Source of the DNA: Neophaeotheca triangularis
Lineage: Eukaryota
Assembly: GCA_054600435.1 (NCBI GenBank)
Contig: BAAIJX010000039.1
Span: forward strand, 62,001 to 126,000
DNA: 64,000 bases
Direction of reading: 5' to 3'
Both the position numbers and the translations under genes were made by a program. Of the stretch, positions 3,572 through 57,761 are shown piece after piece; the stretch's first letter is position 1, and each line of letters starts with the position of its first letter. Under the pieces are notes generated by a model, which made no database searches, was not told the DNA's origin, and was given only the letters and a program-made list of their open reading frames with translations.

Positions 3572-6500
3572 CTTGACGGTGTTTGGAGGGGGTGTTGTCG
3601 GCGAGGTGTTGTCGTTGTCGAGTGCGGCGCTCTTGGGTGAAGTCGGCTACTTTGGTGTGGTATAGAAATTGTGCGAAATTGGAGCATTGTTTAGTCAGCA
3701 TGTACCGAAGCTTGGCAGTGAAGGAAAGTTTGCTACCTTCACCTCGAGCTACAGGAACTCTCCATGCTTCTACCACACCATACTTCAACCTTACGATATA
3801 CAAGATGATGTCTTTCGAGAAGGGGTGGCAGCTCTGTGATTTGCTAGAACCCAAGTACGATGGGCCAAACAATTCAGCAAGCCTACGGTGATATCTACAC
3901 TTGCACTGCTCCTGCCACCACTCAGACCTGCGATTTGATCGAGACTCTGAGCGACGCGTCCAAATTCAACTGGCGAACGCACAAGCTGCCCCAGGATACC
4001 ACCGAGTAATCGCGGAAGATCGCTGCTACGACGTAAGCGTCTGGCAAAGGTGAAGAGTCGAACATCGATACGGTCGTTGAACACACCCACATCCTGAATG
4101 CGTGCGAAAGAGCAATGGTTATGTACGGTTACGACACGGACAGGCTCTCAAGGACATCTCTGGTAAGCAATACACCTCCGCTCCCTTCCTCCATTTTAAA
4201 TGATGATACCTATACACATACATTATTTTCTGGTACCTCTTGTTTTAAAGACCCTCTGGTCTTCGTGAACTCAACGGACTTCTGATCGCACTCTGGCGCA
4301 TTATATTTTGCACCGCAGACTAGTTTCAAGCGCTCATTATGACTGACTGCCTTTACAGATATCCTCGACTTCGCCATATTCCTGCACGCCGAACGCTTCA
4401 TAGGCTGCGTAGAACTTGATGGTTTGGCAAGTACTGACAGCCTGCTCACATCTTTTGAGAATTGTAACATACACCGAAGAACAAATCGGATTGCATCGTA
4501 TCTGGTGGCATTTAAGACATAACAATTGGAGTACCGACGGAGTAGCTGTACTCGCAGACCTTTCCGCTGTGACATCGAGCGTGCTGTAAATGCACACGGG
4601 CTACATTGAGCATCTGAGATGCGAGCCATAGATTTAAGTAGCGATGTCAATGATACTCCATATATTCTTGCCCCGACATATCTCCACGACCAACAGCAAA
4701 GCCAACGAGCCTTCATCTAGCATGCGGTTCCAGGCCACCGCAAGCTCTAGTAAGCTTCTGGCAGCATTCTCCCCTGGCTGAATCTAGAGCAGTGAGATTT
4801 CTCAGCAACACTTCGACGTGGGCCGCAGTAGAAAGGTCGAGCGGATACGGCAGCATGAAAAGAGTGCTTCGGTGAAATAGAAATGCCAGTGCCTACATAC
4901 ATGGGCGGCACTGCCGACCGATCCAACCGTGCCACGCGTTCCAACAACTCGCAAGTGAGAACGATACATCGCGGCCAGCCGCTGGTAACTACCTTACTTC
5001 CGGGACAGGGCGACAAGTGCCACCAGTTCAGCCATGTGTGTACCAGTCGGCATCCCACAATACCAAAATTGCGCGGCAGCGTGGCAATAGAATAGTAATA
5101 ATTCTGCCGTTTTCAACACTTCCCGACAGTCCCGATAGCCACTCTCGCGACATGTGTGACAAGTACCTGCGTACCGAGCCACCGTAGGTTGAACTGACAA
5201 CGCACGACAGCTGCTTCTTATTACATGCATGCACGGCGCCTCGTTCGTCAACGTGGCCGTCCCTGCCAATTTTACGATCGGAAGTGAAAAGAATGGGGGA
5301 TGGAAAAGCAAAAACCTTGTGCAGAAATTATCTTTGATTGCCATGGTAAGGTGGTGGAGGTGAGTGGAGCGGAGTGGAGGGATATGAAATTGAGCTTGAG
5401 AGATTTACGTGTGTCTTTTGTTCTAGAATTTTGGTCGAAAAGAGAGGGATTTGATATTGTTATTGGAGTGCCGAATGACTGGCCGAAGGGCAGGAAGGAA
5501 AGATATCAGGCTGCGTTGACTGGGTGATGGTTTTATCAATTGTTTGCACAGCCCGCGTGCCCTAGGCGGTTGGGCCGGCAGGACACGCGGCGACGATGTG
5601 TACTCTTCGAGCCGTGATGCCGTGTCGAAGAGGAGAGCATCTCGTGGTCAGGATCGGCCCCGGCACCGATGGCTGTGATGGTGGTGTGGTGCGGCTTACC
5701 GTACCGTGATGTGGGTTGGCGGGGCGGCAGAATATTAATGTTACGTCTTGGGTGTGTGCGGGTTCTCGTGAAAGATAAGAGGACGGCGGGAGAGGGCAGG
5801 GGAGGGTAGAAAAGAAGAGGATGGTGGTGGACTACTGGTGGTGTCTTGCCGCGAGTAATAGTATTAGCAAGAAAGCGCAGTCTATCAGAGCTTGTTTCCG
5901 AGAGAATAAATCCTTTCTGTCCTGTGTGGGTTGTATCTCAAATCTGTCAGTAGGAGTAGTGTGACTAGTGTCTGCTCTTGCGAAGAAAGTGTGGGTTTCT
6001 TTACGGGCAACGTCCCTGTAAGATTTATCATTCAAGTTGATTTCGGGGTCCAGCACGGTCCAGCTAGCGCTTTGGTGGGCCGAGCCGATGGCATTATTAT
6101 TATTACTATTCATTCCTGGCGGCTGCTGTTTACTAGGTAGGTACTGTTTGGCTATGTTGTAGGTACATGCGCCGTACCTAGGTATCCTCTGGCTACAGTT
6201 GAGGTTTTGCGCAGTGACATACCTTATGAGCCAGAACTGGCATTGTCGTCGTCATGAGCGACCCTCGATGCGACTGGTCAGTATGGGTAAGCTGAAGGTA
6301 GGTACCTGATCCATCTGATTCTGGAGAGAGCGGCTCGGTCGACCGGTAGCCACGTTAGAGCAGAAGAAGCGCCGATCCCAATGGCGGGGTCTGATTGGGC
6401 CAACGCCGAGACCAAAGGAAATTGGTGCCTGCATTAGCGCCGCAGGCATTAAAGTTGCCGTGCAGCTGCCAGCTGATTAGTGTGTCCAGGGTGTGTGTGT

Positions 6501-6991
6501 AGAGGGGAGGGACGGGAGACTTAGGTACTACTGAGAGAGAGGGCACAGGGCAGGCGCGATCCCCTGGGAGGATATTAAGGGACGCCTTCCCCTTTTCTTC
6601 CGCATTCCTCGCTCTTTGCCTCGTGCGCAGAACATCAAACACAGCCTGGTACCTACCCAGACCTACCTACACTCCTTGCCTGGTCACTGCTCCCTCTTCG
6701 TTCACTCCTTTCTTCTACTCCACACTCACTCACTTGTCATTGACTGACTACCCACGCTCATTGAGAACCCTCGGCCAACAATAGTAGCTGAAACACATTC
6801 TTTTACCCTGAAGAGAGCCTGCGACAATAGCTTGGATCAATCCTGCGCCATTGATACCCCCCGTCCAAACACCCCGAAAAAAGAAACAACCTGCGACTCG
6901 AGCCTCCGAACAAACAATCTACAACTCCACATCTAGCAAGAAACAACGACAGACACATACCTCGTCCCCAATCTAGCAACATCTATCCACG

Positions 6992-8533
6992 ATGAAATAC
7001 CTCTACACCACCGCGGCGCTGTTCGCGGCTGCCGTATCCGTTGCCGCGAACAACGAAGGTTGCACCAACGACGGCGGCAATTGGTACTGCAAACAGGTCA
7101 ACGCAATCACCTACCAGGGCGTTGGTGGAAATGGCAAGTACAACAAGGTCACCAGCATGGACGCCAACTCCGGCACCTGCTCCAGCACCCCGCAGGGCTA
7201 CTCCGGTAGCATGTCGCCCTTGAATGAGGAGGTGAGTAAACGGCGCGACTCTTAACCTGCGATAGCTGTCAGCTCATCATGTCCTTTACAGTTGTCAATG
7301 CACTTCCGTGGCCCTCTCAACCTCAAGCAGTTTGCCGTCTACACCCCCGGCGATCAGAGCTCTTCCAAGAAGGCCAAGGCTCGCCGTAGCGCGACTGAGC
7401 GCCGCCATGCTCACGCTCACGCCCACTCTCACCACCACCTTCACCAACACCAATCCGATATCAAGAAGCGCAACGTCGGTGACATGGTCATCGCAACCAT
7501 CAACGGCGAGGTCGTCAGCTGGGCCAATGACTTTGGCGAAAGCGGAGACAAGACTGCTGCACCCGCTGAAGCGACGGCCAAGGCCACCACCGCTGCCACT
7601 GCTGCCGCCGCTGCGGAAACCACCGAGGCTACCATGGCCGCGCCCAAGAACCGTGTCAACATCGCCGGTCTCGGTGGTGACAGCTCCGACGAGTCCTCCG
7701 CTAAGTCCTCGGACAGCCCCGCTACCACTCCCAGCAGCGACTCTTCTTCCGGCAGCTCTTCTTCCGATTCCTCCAGTTCTTCGGGATCTAACGTTTCCGG
7801 AAGCTGGGGTCGTCAACACTACTTCAACGCCGGCTCTGGTACTCAGGATGGCTTGACCCTTCTCAACCATAACGGTGGTTCTGGCTCAGGTGTCTTCGAC
7901 TACTCCTTCGGCAACTCTCTTTCTTACTCCTCGTCCGACGGCAAATCCGGCAGCGCTTCCCCCGAAGTCTTTTCCGGCAACACTATTGGCTCGTCTGATG
8001 AAGTCATCTTCATGAGTGACGACGAATGTCAAGGCGACTCCTGCGGTTACGTTCGCGATGGCACTGTCGCTTACCACGGCTTTGCCGGTCAGCAGAAGGC
8101 CTTTTTCTTCGAGTTCGAGATGCCTGATGACGGCAAGAGCGGTGCTTCTCAATACGACCCAGTCAACATGCCTGCCATCTGGATGCTCAACGCTCAGATT
8201 CCGCGCACCCTCCAATATGGAAACGCCGACTGCTCGTGCTGGACTTCTGGCTGCGGTGAGTTTGACATTATGGAAGTTCTCGCGCCTGGCGACAAGCGCT
8301 GCAAGTCTACCCTCCACGGGAACATCGCAGGTGGCGACAGCAACTACTTCCAGCGTCCAATGTCCGGTCCTATGAAGATCGGCGTTGTGCTCGACGAGGA
8401 CCAGATCCACATCAAGGTTCTCGAGAACAGCTTTGATTTCAGCGGCAGCCTCAGCCCAGATGATATCAAGTCCATCTGCGAGACCGAAGACACTGCAGGT
8501 GGCTTGTACTCCATCTTCAACCTTGCGCAGTAA
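6992..8533 (+). CDS. TOS1: Secreted TOS1/PGA52-like cell-wall putative glycosidase (DUF2403+DUF2401); intron 7232-7291
   Basis: Signal peptide; GGNWYC...PLNEE-LSMHFRGPLNLKQFAVY; His-rich and Ser-rich linker; NMPAIWMLNAQIPRTLQYG..CSCWTSGCGEFDIMEVL. Confidence 0.92.
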
Positions 8534-20918: not shown

Positions 20919-22014
20919 GACGGTGTGAACGGTTAGCGACTTCACTCATACTGCCGTGAAAAAAATTCCGGACAGGTGTATAGTAAATGTACATTCTCGA
21001 CACCAACCATTGTGATGACTCCTTGATGAGGCGATGGCGTCAAGTCAGTTGATATCACCCGCTCACATTCACTTGACTAGGTACATCATCATAGGTATTG
21101 TAGGTATGTAGTGTCCGAGTCCGACTCTCAATAGACTCTCGGTACGGCACGTGAGTTTAATAGCTTCAAGAGTCAAGACCAGCTAACCGGGAGGGGAAAG
21201 GTGGGAGGCAGGGCGGTGGGCGGCGGGCAGGCGAGTGTTTGTCGCGGCTGTTGTTAGCGTGGGCCAGCTGAGCGTTCAGCCTGAGCCGCCGTTCGTCTCG
21301 TCTCGTCTCGTCTCGTATCCTAGGTACCCAAGGTTGGTTAGGTAAGGTTCTCCCCCGACTCCTCCACACTACTCGCGCAGACAAACAGCCGGCCGGTGAT
21401 AACGTCCCGTCGTTTGGTCAACTTCAAATCCGCCCGCCTTGAGCCTACAATAACGTTCGTTAATTAATTTGACCGGAGCTCGAGTGAAGTTGAAGATACA
21501 GCACCTACACATTCCGACCCATTCGACCAATACTAAGGTGCCTGGAGTTGTAGCCAGTTCCTCGGTCATTGAAGCTCCGAGAACGCTGGATCCTTCCGAC
21601 CAACCCTCCCGCGCGCGCCAGGAGGCACGACGACAGAGTTGTAGCGGTATATTCCCTTACCGCCCCCGAACACAAGCACCCGCCGCAACCTCACCAGAAC
21701 CGACAAATATAGCTGTTGTACCTGTCCGCTCGTGACGACGTCTTGAAGCATCCACCGCCGACCTTCGCTGGCCTTCATTCCTCCCTTTCTCGCTGTTGCC
21801 TTGCAAGGGGAGCGGCGTGTCTGAACCCCGCGACAACCGCCCAGAAAGTCAATCAGTGACCTCCCTGGGCAAACGCCAGCCTCTACAAACACTTTGTTTC
21901 CCGCTGCCATAGCCCTGCTGCCGCCATACCTCTCCGTCACTCTGCGCCTGGCCTGGCCGCGACATCTCCTACATACCCATACCTCACGTTACAAGCGCGA
22001 CTGTGTTGGTCACA

Positions 22015-25000
22015 ATGTCAGCGGCAGCGCCTCCCGCTTCGCTCCCGCGCACTCCATCCCGTCGTCAGCCACCAGGATACAGCAATACTCCCGACCGCGA
22101 ACGACCGCAACGAACCCAGTCCACCACCTCTCGATCCGCAGCACCGAGCTCGCCACGTCGATCCATGTCGAGCTCACAGACTCCGCAAACGCAACCATCG
22201 TCGCATAGCCGAACCCCCTCCTCCCACCTTGCAAATGTCGCACGGAAAGATTACGAGCAAGGGAATGTCGCGCGCCCGCCTAGCTCACGGAGAAGCGAAA
22301 GCCACGACAGACCGGTAAGGACTGAGTCGACTCGACCCAGCGCAGGCCACACGCGAACGAGCTCCAGGTATAACAGCGAACAGCCCACCCCTGCCGCGCC
22401 ATCTTCGAATGGAACTGAGGGACCGAGATCGAGTCACGTTCCGAGCAGTAATCAAAATATGAGGCGGCGCACGACAATCGATGCGCAGACTGGGAGCTGG
22501 GAGCTTGGGAAAACTATTGGGGCCGGTAGCATGGGCAAGGTGAAGCTTGCAAGGAACAAGGAGACTGGAGAACAGGTAGGGAACGATGATAACATACCAC
22601 GACGGGCATATACTAACTTCTGCAAAGGTTGCCGTCAAGATTGTCCCTCGACAAAGCAACGACGGAGAACACCGTTCAGCTGCCGAGCGAGAACGAGCGG
22701 ACCATTCCAAAGAGGTTAGAACAGCGCGAGAAGCAGCCATCGTCACACTGGTCGACCATCCCTATATATGTGGCATGCGCGACGTCGTTCGGACCAACTA
22801 CCACTGGTACATGCTGTTCGAGTACGTCAACGGCGGGCAGATGCTCGATTACATTATCAGCCATGGCAGACTGAAGGAAAAGCAAGCTCGAAAGTTTGGG
22901 AGACAAATCTCGAGTGCCCTCGACTATTGCCATCGAAATAGCATTGTGCATCGGGATTTGAAGATTGAGAACATACTCATCAGCAAGACTGGCGACATCA
23001 AAATCATCGATTTTGGCTTGAGCAACCTGTTCAGTCCACGGAACCACTTGAAGACGTTTTGCGGGTCGCTGTACTTTGCTGCCCCTGAGCTGTTGCAAGC
23101 GAAGCAGTATACTGGCCCAGAGGTCGACGTTTGGAGTTTCGGGATCGTGTTGTATGTGCTGGTGTGCGGCAAAGTGCCCTTCGACGACCAGAGCATGCCC
23201 CAGCTGCACGCGAAGATCAAGAAGGGTGTCGTAGAATATCCGCCTTGGTTGACTCCTGGTTCGTGAATCCTGACAGAACATGCTTTTACGCGTACTGACC
23301 GCAACCTCGCAGAATGCCGTAACCTGATCGCCCGCATGCTAACAACAGATCCGGCGCAACGAGCTACTCTTGGCGAGATCATGACCCACCCTTGGATTAC
23401 AAAGGGCTTTGGTGGCCCACCAGAGAACTATCTACCTACCAGGAAACCTCTGCATATGCCCTTGGACTCCTCTGTGATTGACAAAATGACTGGCTTTGAT
23501 TTTGGGGCGGCGGACGTCATAACCGGACAATTGTCAAAGATCATCGAAGGCGAAGATTACCAGCGTGCCGTGCGAAACGCCGAGCGAAGATCTATGCAAC
23601 CGACTCCTGAGATTGAGAAGAAGCGCGGCGTTTTCGATTTCTACAAGCGTCGAAACTCGACAACGAGCCGGGACACTCTGAATACCCCATCTACGGAAGC
23701 CATCCAGCTCGGGTCTGACCCGGTTAATGCTTTCAGCCCCCTCATCTCCATCTATTACTTGGCGAAGGAAAAGCAGGAGAGAGAGGCTAGGGAGAAGAAC
23801 CCAGGTGCTCTGGCTATGCCACAGAGCCCAGGCGAGAAGGCTTTGAAGTTGCCCGATTTGCCAGCGCCTCCAGCTGCGCACACGAATAGCGCTGCTTACG
23901 AGATGGTGGGCGAGAAACCAACAGGAGGCAGGTCGAGACCTCGCGCTAGGACACAAGGCGAAGATGATGTTGCGGACGGCATGAAGAATATCAATTTGAA
24001 CACGGCACCTCCGCCGACCAGTCCGCCTGTCATTGTTGCTCAGCAAGAGCAGCAGCATGCCGAGCCTCTGAGAAAAGAGTCGGCTGCTGTGGGTTTACTA
24101 CGGAGATTTAGTACGAGACGGCACAAAGATCCAGTCGAGCGTCCGGATCGCAGTGAGAGGCCGAAGCATCCACCACCTTCTCTTGCTGTCTTTGGGCCTA
24201 GCGAAACTCCACGCAAGAGCTTTAGTGTTAAGCGCACTAGGGACGGGGATCAGAGTGCGACGCGACTCAGGCCGGAATCAAGGGACTCGAGAAAGGAGCA
24301 GACACTCACGCCAGACAGCGAAGCTTCGAAGAAGAGTGGACTTGGGAGATCAGTTAGTGTCAATTCCACCGACATTAGGAGACGGTTCACTAGGCGTGGC
24401 GTGTCTGAGAGTCAGTCGGGCCGGCCCCCACTGAGCTCCCATAACAGCCACGACCAGAGATCGTTCAGGGACAAGGAGGAGCACGCCCCGAGCCTGCGAG
24501 ACGCCGCCTCGGATGCCGAAGCAGCGACCCCCAAGCCACCGTCCAACAATGCAAGTCGCGCCAAATCGATGGGACATGCGAGAAGAGAAAGTTTTCAAGC
24601 CCGCCGCGCTCGCAGAGATGAGGCGCGCACCTCTAACGTCCCGGAGGAAACCGACGCAGATCTGCAAGACGATGCCGACCAAGAGCTAGAAGCTGGCAAC
24701 ACAAGCAGCGGCGGCAGCCCCACGGGCATCAAACCCGTGTACCTCAAGGGCCTCTTCAGCGTCTCCACAACAAGCAGCCGCCCCTTGAACGTCATCCGCG
24801 CAGACATCATCCGCGTGTTGCGCCAACTCGGCGTCGACTACAAGGAGATCAAAGGCGGTTTCGCCTGCCGACACAGCCCTAGCGTCGACTCCGCCCGCCC
24901 GCCACCCGACGACATGGCTCCCTCAGGCGCTCAACCGCAAAGCCCACCCACCGGGTCTGGTAGCCACAAGCGCAAAATCTCCTTTGGTGGCTTCATGGGC

Positions 25001-53054: not shown

Positions 53055-54494
53055 ATGTCCGCCCCCGAGATCCCTAAGCAGTGCAAGGCCGGTGTTGTGG
53101 TCAACGAGGGTCCTGACTTTCATGTTGAGATCCAGATGGTTGATGTGCCCGAATGCGGTGGGTTTGCGCAATAGCAACCTAGACGGAACGGCGTGGAACT
53201 GATGGCGGGATGATAGGACCCGACGATGTTCTTCTCAAGCTCAACTACACCGGCCTGTGCATGAGCGATGTGCACTTCATGATGAATGTGCGTAGGCTCC
53301 ATTACAGGGCTTAAGTTGTTGGACTCGGTTGGCTGACTCTATACTTTAGGATTGGGCCGTCCCTCCCATGAGTACGTTCGGAACCAAGTGTGCTGGCCAC
53401 GAAGGCGCAGGAGAAGTCGTCCAGGTTGGGACGAATGTTCAGGGTTGGAAAATTGGAGACCACGGTGGTGTGAAGCCATTGTGGGATGTGTGCCATAACT
53501 GCGAGTCATGCTGGAATGGTAGGTTTCCACCAAGAGTGAGGAGCTGTCGAATAATGCAAGCTGATCACGCTTCCAGGACGCGAGAACTACTGCCCGGGTG
53601 GCGTCTACACTGGTCTTGTGGCGCAGGGAACCTACTGCCAGTACTTGAAAAGCCCAGTAAGTCGGTCAATCTCTTGAAGATATTTCCAAACGTTCACTTA
53701 CATACTTTTGAGGCCAAATACACGAGCCGTATTCCTGAGGGCGTACCCGACCACGTAGCTGGTCCTATCATGTGCTCAGCGTCCACGATGCACCGCTCGC
53801 TCTTGGACTCCGGCTTGAGGCCAGGCAACTTTGTCGTTTTCCCTGGTGGCGGAGGTGGAGTGGGTATTCAAGGAGTGCAGCTCGCAAAGTATGTGTCGAG
53901 CGAATCGACGCGCCCTTGCAACATACTGACGATATTCTTAGAGCTATGGGCATGCGACCTGTCGTAGTCGACAGCGGAGCCGCCAAGAAAGAGCTTGCAA
54001 TGAGGATGGGTGCCGAAGAGTTCGTCGACTTCAAGGAGCACTCTAGCGTCGCGGAACGGGTCAAGGAGGTCTGTGATGGTGTCGGTGCGCACGGTGTGCT
54101 GGTGACGGCTTACCAGGCCTACAAGGGTAAGCTCGAGGAAACCTCGAAAAGTCCTTGATGAGCGTTCCAAACTGACACCTATCGCTTCACAGACGCCATT
54201 AGTTTCGTGGGAGACCGTATCGGCGCCAAGATCATGTGCATCGCACTCCCGCCGGCGGATACGTGTACCATTGGCGGCGATCCCAACTACTTCATTTTCA
54301 AAAACCTGAGTGTCATTGGTACGCTCGTCGGGACAATGAACGACACTGCGGCGACGCTCGATTACGCAAAACGAGGCTTGCTGAAGGATATTGCGGAGAT
54401 CAGGCCATTGTCGAAGATGCCGGAGAGCATTCAGCAGCTGAAGCGTGGAGAAATCGCTGGGCGTGTGGTGATCGACTTCAACGATGAATCTTAA
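53055..54494 (+). CDS. Zinc-dependent alcohol dehydrogenase (MDR family); six introns
   Basis: TGLCMSDVH, GHEGAGEV, CHNCESC..C structural Zn site, GGGGGVG, GRVVIDF. Confidence 0.93.
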
Positions 54495-55698
54495 AAAGTA
54501 AGAAGCGAGAAGAGGAGAAAGAATAAGAAGAGGGGGACACTTGGATGGAATATTGGAATCGAGCGTTCTGTATGTTGTCAATACTCACGTAAAGGTTACC
54601 GTTGCGCTGTTGTCATGGTGGGACCAAAAGTGACCCAAAGATTGTGGGAGGAGTCGCTACCTAAGATGTATACCTCATAACTTACCTACGCCGCTTGTCG
54701 AGAACAACAACCATGATGGATGCCATGTGACTGTCGAGCATACCTACCTTAGGTAACGTGTCTCGGGCATAAGTTAATGAGGTGGAGGATCAAGGGTCAG
54801 GGGTTGGGCTGAAGAGAGACAGTACAGTGACAGTCGGTCGGTCGGCGCACGGCTACTTCCGCCCATATCTACATAAGGTACCTCTTGGCTTGGCTGAAAG
54901 CAGCAACCTTAAGCAAGCTGCACGCGCCCTCACAAGTCACAACCTGGAGGGCAACGGCGCAAGTCATCTATCGAGATTGGACACCAGGCCTACTCGGTAC
55001 TCTACTACTCACATAACAGCACACTCATCACATACCTGCTACTCCTCTGTCAGACCTCACACACTTCACGCCCCACCCCCCCCGTCACTCCAGTCGATCG
55101 CCGGGAGGTTCAATGCCCGTCTGCACCTAAGATCGGCCCCTGGCACTTGCACCAATCAACAAGTGCGACTTCACCTCTCCCGACCATCACTCGGGTTACC
55201 TAGCCATCGCGTGCGACAGCGACTACTTTCTTCACGGTGGATTCAGACGCTTCCTCCGTTCATACCAGCCCGACACCCTCCATCCGCGGTCACGCAACAG
55301 ACGCTCACGGCAAAGTAGACGTCGACTCCCACTTCCGATTAGGGCGGCAATCTCGCGAAACCCAGGACGAGCCGTCCACGACAGCTTCGGCTGAATCTCC
55401 TCCTCCCTTCTATTCTCACAACTTTCCTTCGCGCTACTTTCCTGAGCCGCCCTCCACCGATCCATACCGCGCGCTTGTTACAAGCCCCGCGACTTCTTCC
55501 CTCACAGCGTTCGCGCCTTCAGGACCCGCCCCACCGTTCCAAGAGCAGATCTCAGCCGCGCCCTCGGTTGTTGAAGAGACCAAGGCTGCCCTTCCACGAG
55601 ATACAAAGGAAGGACAGAGCAGCAAGGACCTTGACGACGGCGAGCCTCCTCCACCCTACTCAGAAGGCTCCAGCCCCCTCGAAGGGTTTACATACGTC

Positions 55699-56947
55699 AT
55701 GGCGGCCGCAGGAGCAGCAGCAAGCATCATAACGCAGGTGCCCCAAGGTGGACCTGCGCCAATCAATACCGCACTTTCAGGAGGTCAGTCGCCTAGCAGT
55801 GACACCGAGTCTGCGATCAATCTAACAACGGCAGTAGCTCCGGAAGAGAACCTCAATCTCGAGCTCAGGTATGCATATCGCCAACAAACGTGCGCGAGGA
55901 ACCTCATACTGACTACATTTAGGGGCACCCGCTTCTCAATCTCTCGCGAAGAGCTTCTCACGCTCCCAGAGTTCGTGCTTCTCTCGCTCTTCCCAAACGG
56001 CCTCCTTCCGGATGGACACATGAACAGCTTCTCGGATGGCGATGCCTACCAAATCGACGTAAGCAACACCCCACGCTTGATAACCCAGGCCAAAGCCCCG
56101 GCATCTCTTCAAGGAATCTTGCGAGTGCTGGGTAACGAAGAAGTATATCTATCTGACATTATCTATCGCGCGCAGTACGACCCCACGTCTCTGCAGTACA
56201 TGCTTGAGTTCTTTAGGAATGTTGCACAGACGATACCCCAGAGCGATGACCCGGCGCAATCTAGTCAAGACCTTACATCGCCGAGCACCATGCCAATCGA
56301 GCCAATGCCGGGCAATGCTCGTGACATGCTGCAAGACAGGGCTGGTATCATCGTCCTTCGGGAAGACCTCGACTTCTACGCCATCCCACCACGCAAGGAC
56401 ATCGAACAGACAGAAATGATTGAGGTCAAGCGCGCGGCTGGCAAGGCTCTATTGAGGCAGGATGGCATCTTCTCTGGGCTCAGGAAAAGCGAGGAGCCAG
56501 GCACGACAGAGCAGCATCTCATTGAGATGTTGACCGCAGGGTGAGCATGTTCCACATTCTACCTTGAAACGTGCGACGTTCGCTGACAACCATGACTAGC
56601 GGTTTCGACCACTCTGACACCTGGGGCCATCGCGCTGCTGAACCTAACAAAGCCGTCATTTGCTCCATCGCGCTAGCCCGTCTACGGACCGATATTCGCG
56701 GCGAGGCGGCCAACAGTACCGCCGTCGGCATGGCCCAGAAGCTTCTGTTGTTCTGGCGCAAGCCTGCGCGCAGGTGTTGGTGGGAGGGTGTTGAGCTCGA
56801 CAACGTTGAGGGAGTTGAGGGTAAACTCAAAGTGTGGATTCGCAGAGTCTGGACTTTGGAAATGGTATGTAAAAGACTTTTGAAAGGCTAATTATTGAAG
56901 CGACCGCTAACAGTATCGTGCAACAGAGTGTAATTGGCCTCCGCTAG
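55699..56947 (+). CDS. WHI2: Whi2-like BTB-domain stress/growth regulator; five introns; possible GTG-initiated extension from 55237
   Basis: MAAAG..SIITQV, RGTRFSISREELLTLPEFVLLSLFPNGL, YDPTSLQYMLEFF, IIVLREDLDFY, KLLLFWRKPARRCWW, KVWIRRVWTLEMSVIGLR. Confidence 0.93.
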
Positions 56948-57761
56948 CGTTCCTCGCGAGCCCACCGAGTGTCATATCTTTCCGACAATAAGAGTTACTA
57001 ATACCCATGTGGATTTCGAGAATTCTTAGGAATGCGCAGTATGCCCGCGTGAGTGCCGAAGAGTTCGGAGAGACCTACGAGAGCAGCAGCGGCGGCAGCA
57101 GCGGCAGCACATACTCTTCGATCGACGAGTTCATTGACGGAAACTACACCTACCTGCCGGCATTCAGTACTACCGGAATGGAAGGAAGGGAAGATTGAGA
57201 GAAAAAGCGTTGGTTTGCACAGCATGACGGCGCACGGGCGCATGGGCGCGCGTTTGGAAGCGTTGATTCTTGCGACAGTGCAAATCGAGCGGGCGTTGGG
57301 GTCATCTCACAACTGATACCAGGCCACGCGACGGTTTCTGGGTGCGACTTGCGAGCACTGTTAGCGATACATAACCCATTTCAATGTTACACAGCGTTCA
57401 ATGCGATCCATCTCGAGCATCGCGCCAAACGAATGTTATGCTTCATACGTCGAACTATCCGAGCCACACCAACGATGACATTGACAACCGATCAATCGGC
57501 CAACAGACCTTCACGTCGGCATCGTGAGTAAACGTTAGTCTGGAACGCGACGCGAATAGATAGAGGTAAATGCCTGTGTGACTGTTAAGCAGCTAAAAAC
57601 AGCCAGCAGCTAGCGCGACGTGGCTCCGACCCAATTACGACTCGACGCTGCCCGCGGGAAACGGAGGGTTTCCGCGCAGACGTCGAGCTGCCTCGAGTGC
57701 TCCTTGAAACTTTTTGGCGATCACCTACCACCATATCACTGTCTCTTTACCCCCCTACATC

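Follow-up and report, generated by a model that had tools for sequence, protein, structure and literature searches.

The 64,000 nucleotides (nt) of Neophaeotheca triangularis DNA analysed here (contig BAAIJX010000039.1, positions 62,001 to 126,000; referred to below as the window) contain a gene for Whi2, a conserved fungal protein that regulates TORC1 and the general stress response as well as cell fusion and pathogenic development. On comparative grounds we consider it likely that the GTG codon at 55237 starts a conserved long isoform of this protein, 154 codons ahead of the ATG at 55699 from which a short form would be read. A preliminary description of the window, made from its letters and open reading frames alone, had proposed that leaky scanning past this GTG yields a long form with a PPxY motif and a short form started at the AUG, and every comparative test put forward there supports the core of that reading, as judged from the sequences of relatives.

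The Whi2 frame is open and free of ATG far upstream of its first AUG

What the preliminary description had claimed about the window itself proved accurate. The frame of ATG 55699 is open upstream for 165 codons, up to the TAG at 55201-55203. There is no ATG in any frame between 55116 and 55698, and the gap that ends at ATG 55699 measures 586 nt. The GTG at 55237, located in ttcacgGTGgat, has A at -3 and G at +4, and the 154 codons counted from it read as had been given, including ESPPPFY (55393-55413) and PPPPY (55645-55659). The elements of the proposed start region are as follows.

55201..55203, + strand: in-frame TAG, 12 codons 5' of the GTG, which shuts the frame to any unspliced upstream ATG
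55231..55240, + strand: initiation context ttcacg-GTG-g, with A at -3 and G at +4
55237..55239, + strand: GTG put forward as the near-cognate start of the long isoform; first conserved codon
55237..55698, + strand: N-terminal extension of 154 codons, devoid of Met codons and of ATG in all three frames
55699..55701, + strand: first AUG of the leader plus extension (tacgtcATGgcg), start of the 318-residue short form, with G at -3 and G at +4

Within this window alone such an ATG-free gap is unusual, not unique, and proves nothing by itself: it is the third longest on the + strand, where the mean ATG spacing is 66 nt and where 363 of 63417 segments of 583 nt lack ATG. Its weight comes from the related extensions, which are ATG-free too. 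The longest ATG-free stretch of the window (21106-22015, + strand, 909 nt) runs up to the ATG of a protein-kinase-like open reading frame; as no more than 34 codons of the kinase frame are open 5' of that ATG, the stretch has the look of a long leader without ATG and not of an extension. The second longest on the + strand, of 611 nt, spans 6381-6992.

The extension evolves as protein-coding sequence

A protein search with residues 1-222 of the open frame returned 200 proteins at E <= 0.001; the counts of protein relatives given below refer to the best 120 of these 200, and among the matches listed the alignments of the best relatives span 95-100% of the part of the query with the extension. 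In the alignment of 21 protein sequences (A1), runs of invariant residues are distributed along the extension (ESPPPF...F..YFP, TKAAL..D.K and DDGEPPPPY..G.SP..GFTY.M). In addition, a search of metagenomic DNA matched 337 stretches, from which 41 loci were confirmed, and the open frame proposed in the preliminary description is kept across the relatives.

The ratio of nonsynonymous to synonymous substitution (dN/dS) was estimated from codon alignments of seven distinct lineages, comprising the window and metagenomic loci. It fell between 0.07 and 0.27 in all 21 pairs, at synonymous divergences (dS) of 0.65-2.5, in agreement with the value below 1 that the preliminary description had anticipated; for the window against the six other lineages it was 0.11-0.16, with dS > 1.4. 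The synonymous sites are thus saturated while the protein has been held, which argues that the extension is translated in this frame. Judged from these substitution patterns, the extension is translated and under purifying selection, which indirectly speaks against a transcription start 3' of 55237. The extension is kept as protein in the Mycosphaerellales relatives, and by the same comparison the layout is not private to this genome but common to the Mycosphaerellales and to more distant metagenomic relatives.

These data bear on one alternative, namely that the extension is untranslated here, being a plain 5' leader of the 318-residue protein that is conserved at the RNA or DNA level. Annotation offers it some backing (publications are cited here and below for the excerpts that were drawn on): the WHI-2 protein of Neurospora crassa is described as having 298 residues (PMC4184795), and the Whi2 of Zymoseptoria tritici, ZtIPO323_020880, has 300 residues in the newest gene model (PMC12135003), so that both are annotated in the short form. 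However, the substitutions follow the codon pattern of the frame (the dN/dS and dS values of the window given above), the frame is open for 165 codons, and the first 90 nt of the extension in the window fold no better than shuffled sequences (z +0.82). We find an untranslated extension hardly credible.

A conserved NTG codon marks the edge of conservation

The window and 16 of 18 metagenomic loci have GTG as the codon homologous to 55237, L003 has CTG and L023 has TTG, and in these 18 loci the codon is always directly followed by GAT. In a more distant group characterized by LDP[ED]R.S. (LDPERIS), the site is occupied by TTG in five loci and by GTG in L022, and a further group (LSRTQ) has TTG there in four loci; protein relatives of both groups start with Met at the same place (MDPDQ... 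and MSRTQ..., respectively). Loci L021, L027, L028 and L030-L035, whose anchor residues are arbitrary, were excluded from these start-codon counts and used only for counting the absence of ATG. The codons GTC, GTT and GTA were never seen at the start site. The preliminary description had named as a refutation that orthologues all carry ATG at this position; what was found among the 18 loci is 16 GTG, one CTG and one TTG.

Protein conservation begins at this very codon, downstream of which the relatives share [V/L/M]-D-S-D-x-S-S-V-H-T-T-P-S-L-R-G, and 5' of it both the database N-termini and the DNA are unrelated among the sequences. Forty proteins among the best 120 of the 200 matched this pattern, and the residue in front of the block is V in 28, M in seven and L in three of them; in the two further hits the register was wrong, and inspection shows V there. 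Among the seven M counts, that of P0067 sits a few residues further up, and P0008 (MDSDGDS...) was missed by the pattern. Hortaea carries both forms, ...TATVDSDG... and ...QIMDSDG....

The sequence around the codon is also constrained. In 10 of 10 lineages there is a purine at -3 (A in eight, G in two) and G at +4, and TGGAT is invariant (alignment A3). Elsewhere in the gene GTG is a rare codon for Val: it makes up only 2 of the 72 internal Val codons of the extensions (12 loci) and 17 of the 169 in the downstream conserved exons (15 loci), a comparison made on different locus sets and uncorrected for relatedness and composition; the two invariant internal Val columns of the extension use GTT or GTC. 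A site that accepts only NTG and keeps its -3 and +4 context bears the signature of a start codon and not of an internal hydrophobic residue. The near-cognate conservation foreseen in the preliminary description was therefore recovered in three respects: a conserved NTG, a good context and a position at the 5' edge of conservation.

Two other features near the GTG were considered and set aside. The ACG at 55234 was rejected as a start codon in favour of the GTG, having T at -3 and lacking conservation (relatives read caacGTG, catcGTG and caagGTG). A hairpin that would aid near-cognate initiation was likewise dropped in view of the folding result for the first 90 nt of the window's extension (z +0.82 against shuffles, as above).

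The putative leader carries a tiny upstream open reading frame, and an upstream ATG exon is improbable

In the putative leader of Whi2 in the window, one tiny upstream open reading frame (uORF) precedes the GTG.

55113..55130, + strand: uORF of five codons, ATG CCC GTC TGC ACC TAA (MPVCT), with T at -3 and its stop at 55128-55130

Its ATG is the only one between 54780 and 55698 (919 nt). A similar arrangement was seen in 19 of 21 loci (20 related loci and the window), where the closest ATG on the 5' side, 45-127 nt away from the start codon, begins a uORF of 1-13 codons, and 21-106 nt separate the end of this uORF from the start codon; in L003, L004 and L005 the uORF is a bare ATG followed by a stop. 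As read from the printed contexts, a pyrimidine occupies -3 of the uORF ATG in 18 of these 19. This arrangement suggests, as a lead from sequence, that the micro-uORF could act as a reinitiation or leaky-scanning element in a leader built for graded initiation. Leaders of the GCN4/cpc-1 type are alike in having a short uORF 5' of the start; here the uORF is usually single, and the likeness is one of resemblance only.

An ATG further upstream could serve the long form only through splicing. In all 19 sequences examined at the start site (18 loci and the window), the frame is closed by a stop 12-48 codons 5' of the start codon, with no in-frame ATG on the way. The other 24 loci show no Met codon ahead of PPPPY, counted from the upstream stop in 18 of them and from the contig end in six. 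It may nevertheless be supposed that the long form starts at an ATG in a short upstream exon, spliced in between TAG 55201 and the GTG, which would make the GTG an internal Val codon. The sole candidate in the window would join ATG 55113 and the following CCC, through a donor GTCTGC at 55119, to the acceptor TAG at 55201-55203, removing a phase 0 intron of 85 nt. The junction of ATG 55113 with TAG 55203 would be in frame and is formally possible, and the database models of several relatives do put invented or spliced N-termini upstream.

We consider an upstream ATG exon improbable for several reasons. The donor GTCTGC has C at +3, unlike the four real donors of Whi2, and in relatives the uORFs are ATG-TAG or ATG-TAA, or contain no GT (L003, L004, L005 and L006); in L006 there is no GT anywhere between its upstream ATGs and the GTG. 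In L026, moreover, no AG occurs between the in-frame TGA and the TTG, so that no acceptor can join an ATG exon at that locus. More generally, an AG before the start codon is not conserved. Such an exon would also leave unexplained why the first conserved codon is NTG only, why its -3 and +4 context is kept and why ATG is avoided in all frames. Finally, the newest annotation of Zymoseptoria IPO323 gives Whi2 in the short form of 300 residues with no upstream exon (PMC12135003). We found no conserved upstream ATG exon or acceptor of the kind that the preliminary description had named as an alternative to the GTG. A 3' splice site just past the GTG (GTGGATTCAG, cut at its end; GATTCAG) was rejected as well, since L001, L003, L015 and L016 read GATTCCGAC and have no AG there.

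ATG is kept out of the extension up to an invariant AUG

The depletion of ATG that the preliminary description had predicted for relatives was observed without exception: none of 16 extensions (420-561 nt) contains an ATG in any frame, whereas an equal length 3' of the conserved AUG holds 5-15 ATG. When synonymous codons were permuted within each sequence, a procedure that leaves protein, codon usage and lack of Met unchanged, the probability of obtaining no ATG was 0.03-0.24 per lineage. The product over about nine lineages is ~1e-9 if these are treated as independent, a figure that is weakened by their relatedness. Methionine accounts for 0 of 153 residues in the extension of the window and for 10 of 318 in the short form, and no internal Met was present in any of 38 protein extensions among the matches listed.

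Near-cognate codons are scarce in the extension as well. In-frame CTG and TTG together make up 9 of 103 Leu codons in the extensions (12 loci) and 118 of 361 downstream (15 loci), with the same reservation about locus sets, relatedness and composition as for Val. The scarcity of CTG and TTG, and of GTG, may reflect selection against secondary near-cognate starts. At the end of the ATG-free stretch, the Met encoded by ATG 55699 (M166) is shared by all 21 sequences of A1, and TY[VI]M is found in 96 of the best 120 relatives out of 200.

Selection against starts between the NTG and the AUG makes sense only if ribosomes scan that far. We infer, with somewhat less confidence than we place in the GTG start itself, that both forms would be made from one mRNA by leaky scanning.

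The same observations can be read differently. If translation started at the GTG and the long protein were its sole product, ATG 55699 would encode an internal Met and the lack of ATG would be a by-product of composition or conservation. This Met lies inside the strongly conserved GFTYVMAAAG block, where its invariance needs no start function, the depletion tests in single lineages are weak, and the purifying selection on the extension is strong. However, a near-cognate codon in fungi is normally passed by most ribosomes, and the next AUG captures them; AUG 55699, with G at both -3 and +4, would be expected to do so here. Moreover, all 16 extensions are devoid of ATG despite saturated synonymous sites, and lineages that could have gone over to ATG as the start codon have for the most part stayed with GTG, CTG or TTG. 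A long form as the only product thus appears unlikely to us. It is also conceivable that both forms exist and that the short one is transcribed from a promoter or start site of its own, located within the extension or 3' of it, alternative start sites being common in fungi; yet an internal promoter would exert no pressure against ATG, while 16 of 16 lineages are ATG-free, and we hold this origin of the short form to be quite improbable.

Conserved motifs of the extension

Besides its N-terminal block, the extension contains three conserved motifs.

55393..55443, + strand: ESPPPFYSHNFPSRYFP; A1 positions P66, P67, F69, H72, F74, Y78, F79 and P80 invariant or nearly so
55579..55608, + strand: TKAALPRDTK; A1 positions T126, K127, A128, A129, L130, D133 and K135 invariant
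55645..55659, + strand: PPPPY, of the PPxY type; D144-Y152 (DDGEPPPPY) invariant in A1

PPPY is present in 117 of the best 120 relatives out of 200. As PPPPY lies 13 codons 5' of ATG 55699, it would be carried by the long isoform only. In the AlphaFold2 model of P0008, built from 25 aligned sequences, the predicted local distance difference test (pLDDT) score stays under 50 for the greater part of residues 1-189 (block means 30-51), and the extension part has almost no secondary structure, namely two helical turns of three residues each. This model is poor overall (mean pLDDT 46) and was used only for the absence of predicted structure in the extension, which, as modelled, looks like a disordered carrier of short motifs.

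PPxY motifs are classic ligands of the WW domains of Rsp5/Nedd4 ligases (PMC2171029). The Whi2 extension resembles PY-motif ligands of Rsp5/Nedd4 such as Sna3 and the ART adaptors in that an invariant PPPPY lies in a region predicted, in a model of low confidence, to be unstructured; in contrast to those proteins, the PPPPY of Whi2 is known from sequence alone, and other WW proteins could be its reader. By this analogy, recruitment of an Rsp5/Nedd4-type WW-domain ligase by PPPPY is plausible.

A possible mechanism and the points against it

The observations can be joined in the following way. A ribosome scanning the leader would first meet the tiny uORF with its weak context, after which the first good initiation site would be GTG 55237. 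A minority of the scanning ribosomes would start there with initiator Met-tRNA and produce the long Whi2 of 472 residues, whose extra 154 residues may form a disordered arm with an N-terminal Ser/Thr block, ESPPPF..., TKAALPRDTK and the invariant PPPPY. The remaining ribosomes would scan through 462 nt kept free of ATG and start at AUG 55699, giving the short Whi2 of 318 residues, which would hold the BTB-like core and none of the extension motifs. PPPPY may dock an Rsp5/Nedd4-type WW-domain ligase, with the long form serving as a substrate or an adaptor, and the ratio of long to short form may follow the stringency of start-codon selection or the supply of ternary complex.

Several points weigh against this interpretation. 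ATG occurs at or near the site in some relatives (P0008, P0030, one Hortaea form and the Zasmidium sequence SMVDS), which means that AUG-started long forms exist in the clade, and in P0011, a protein of the Hortaea type, an in-frame Met is found 55 codons further 5'; the formally possible in-frame junction in the leader of the window belongs here too. No conserved hairpin was found after the GTG, the consensus fold of seven lineages comprising 11 pairs, none of which covaries. Each depletion test is weak when taken singly (P 0.03-0.24 per lineage), and the lineages are related to one another. Since initiation at near-cognate codons tends to be inefficient, little of the long form may be made, and a scarce product would sit uneasily with strong purifying selection. 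As to the ligase, the literature search found no paper linking Whi2 to Rsp5 via a PY motif, only incidental co-mentions of the two.

Relation to known non-AUG starts and to existing annotation

Near-cognate extensions in fungi, which the preliminary description had mentioned for Neurospora cpc-1, are indeed described: the near-cognate N-terminal extension of fungal cpc-1 is conserved as amino acids across Pezizomycotina (Ivanov et al. 2017, mBio; PMC5487733). According to the excerpts of that work, cpc-1 resembles Whi2 in having an in-frame extension 5' of the annotated AUG, a near-cognate codon with A at -3 and G at +4, and uORFs in its leader. It differs in having several near-cognate codons (among them ACG), by which an inhibitory uORF is overlapped or bypassed; use of these codons was demonstrated in vitro and in vivo. 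Whi2, on the other hand, has one NTG at the edge of conservation, a uORF that ends upstream and an ATG-free extension, and its case is known by sequence comparison.

A second parallel comes from human KCTD11, which can replace yeast Whi2 (PMC6126876). A long form of this protein (KCTD11l), long annotated as short, has an upstream AUU as its reported start codon (PMC6566181). KCTD11 and Whi2 belong to the same BTB/KCTD-like group and, in these accounts, share in-frame coding sequence 5' of the first ATG and a non-AUG start. In KCTD11, however, the AUU adds 39 residues that complete the BTB domain, whereas the GTG of Whi2 would add 154 predicted-disordered residues, with PPPPY among them, before the BTB-like core. 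Apart from KCTD11, no report of a non-AUG or near-cognate start for Whi2 was found in a search outside of which lay subscription journals and supplements. Whi2 would join the known class of conserved near-cognate N-terminal extensions, with an unusually clean comparative signature.

The sizes of the short Whi2 proteins annotated in N. crassa and Zymoseptoria (given above) match the 318-residue AUG form, and these annotations are without the extension. Whi2 entries in databases vary: they are short, 5'-partial, provided with unrelated invented N-termini or fused to alcohol dehydrogenase. The older Zymoseptoria models fuse Whi2 to a neighbouring dehydrogenase, a difficulty noted in a QTL study of this fungus (PMC12135003). 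An alcohol dehydrogenase is the neighbour there as it is in the window, and fusions of this kind are also present in entries from Hortaea, Elasticomyces and Cercospora zeina. A non-AUG start would explain the 5'-partial entries, the unrelated N-termini and the dehydrogenase fusions alike.

If many Pezizomycotina make the long form, a regulatory layer affecting stability, localisation or ligase recruitment would have been missed in knock-in, tagging and complementation designs. This layer would be set by the choice of start codon, and Whi2 has so far been studied as a short protein of ~300 residues (N. crassa, Zymoseptoria). The locus also offers a clean comparative case in which the start codon toggles between GTG, CTG, TTG and ATG. 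Annotation has missed the layout, and both the gene models of Whi2 and experimental work on it are affected in practice.

A wider speculation, which we regard as rather doubtful, would make the Whi2 leader an ancient translational switch composed of a micro-uORF, an NTG in strong context, a tract of 420-560 nt cleared of ATG (and, for the most part, of CTG and TTG in frame) and an invariant AUG. The nutrient or stress state that Whi2 reports to TORC1 might then set the ratio of the PPPPY-bearing long form to the short form through initiation stringency or the eIF2 ternary complex, with the long form open to Rsp5-type ubiquitylation or acting as its adaptor. The layout would be present in several deep Pezizomycotina lineages and echoed by the AUU-started KCTD11, non-AUG N-terminal isoforms being perhaps an old trait of the group.

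Gene model, neighbouring gene and identity

From the GTG to the stop codon, the gene can be modelled with five exons and an intact spliced frame.

55237..56947, + strand: whole Whi2 gene, spliced frame intact, with the C-terminus MSVIGLR as in relatives
55237-55868, 55923-56058, 56176-56540, 56600-56864 and 56927-56947, + strand: exons of Whi2, the last ending in the stop TAG
55869-55922, 56059-56175, 56541-56599 and 56865-56926, + strand: introns of Whi2, with donors GTATGC, GTAAGC, GTGAGC and GTATGT
54162..54494, + strand: C-terminal exon and stop of a zinc-type alcohol dehydrogenase, the upstream neighbour; open reading frame ending in ...LDYAKRGLLKDIAEIRPLSKMPESIQQLKRGEIAGRVVIDFNDES

The acceptors of the four introns are TAG, CAG, TAG and CAG, in that order, all canonical. 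After splicing, the product has 472 residues when counted from the GTG and 318 when counted from the ATG, and the spliced product of the window is identical to the relative P0008 in 375 of 449 aligned residues. The upstream alcohol dehydrogenase end confines the promoter and leader of Whi2 to 54495-55236. Its C-terminal sequence is the one found fused to Whi2 in database models that carry PF00107/PF08240, and such models apparently arise since predictors look upstream for an ATG. The order of the alcohol dehydrogenase and Whi2 genes is conserved, and the two are fused in the public models P0017, P0018, P0025, P0032, P0033, P0036 and P0037.

By sequence relatedness the gene is the Whi2 orthologue of a Mycosphaerellales-like Dothideomycete. 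The relatives found in the protein search are named by their sources 'WHI2-like protein P4H10.16c' or 'general stress response protein Whi2', and the first ESM Atlas cluster for P0008 is likewise 'WHI2-like protein P4H10.16c' (score 0.97; a lead given without an alignment). The best named relatives belong to Vermiconidia, Zasmidium, Teratosphaeria, Hortaea and Cercospora, with 57-67% identity over the query part; the taxonomy of three of these genera was looked up, and all three are Mycosphaerellales. No Pfam family was matched by P0001 or P0008 at E <= 0.1, the open reading frame of the window gave in Pfam just a sub-threshold match to HELP (E 0.066, 13 bits against a cut-off of 27), and the Whi2 queries had no sequence match in the PDB. 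BTB_2 is carried by just 11% of one neighbouring ESM Atlas cluster. The BTB of Whi2 is described as divergent (PMC6126876), and the blanks in Pfam and the PDB at threshold agree with that remark. The same paper, in the parts drawn on, attributes to yeast Whi2 binding to phosphatases of the Psr1/Psr2 type and action on TORC1 or the stress response.

A search for RNA evidence gave three metatranscriptome runs, with small shares only. The RNA contigs of relatives from them have their ends or joins at 56176, 56537 and 56926, in keeping with three intron junctions of the model; the contigs of these runs cover 56176-57296, with nothing in 54700-56175. Over 56926-57296, which corresponds to the last exon and the 3' region, some contigs are nearly exact: one of 320 nt has two differences, and two of 214 and 200 nt have one difference each. 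The near-exact contigs come from the three runs and two studies and indicate that the source organism or a very close relative was present in those samples, although carry-over of DNA is possible.

Introns 1 and 2 of Whi2, of 54 and 117 nt, are in frame and free of stop codons. In many database proteins, intron 2 is read through as coding sequence (A1 columns about 370-419), which reflects either annotation artefacts or a hint of intron-retention isoforms.

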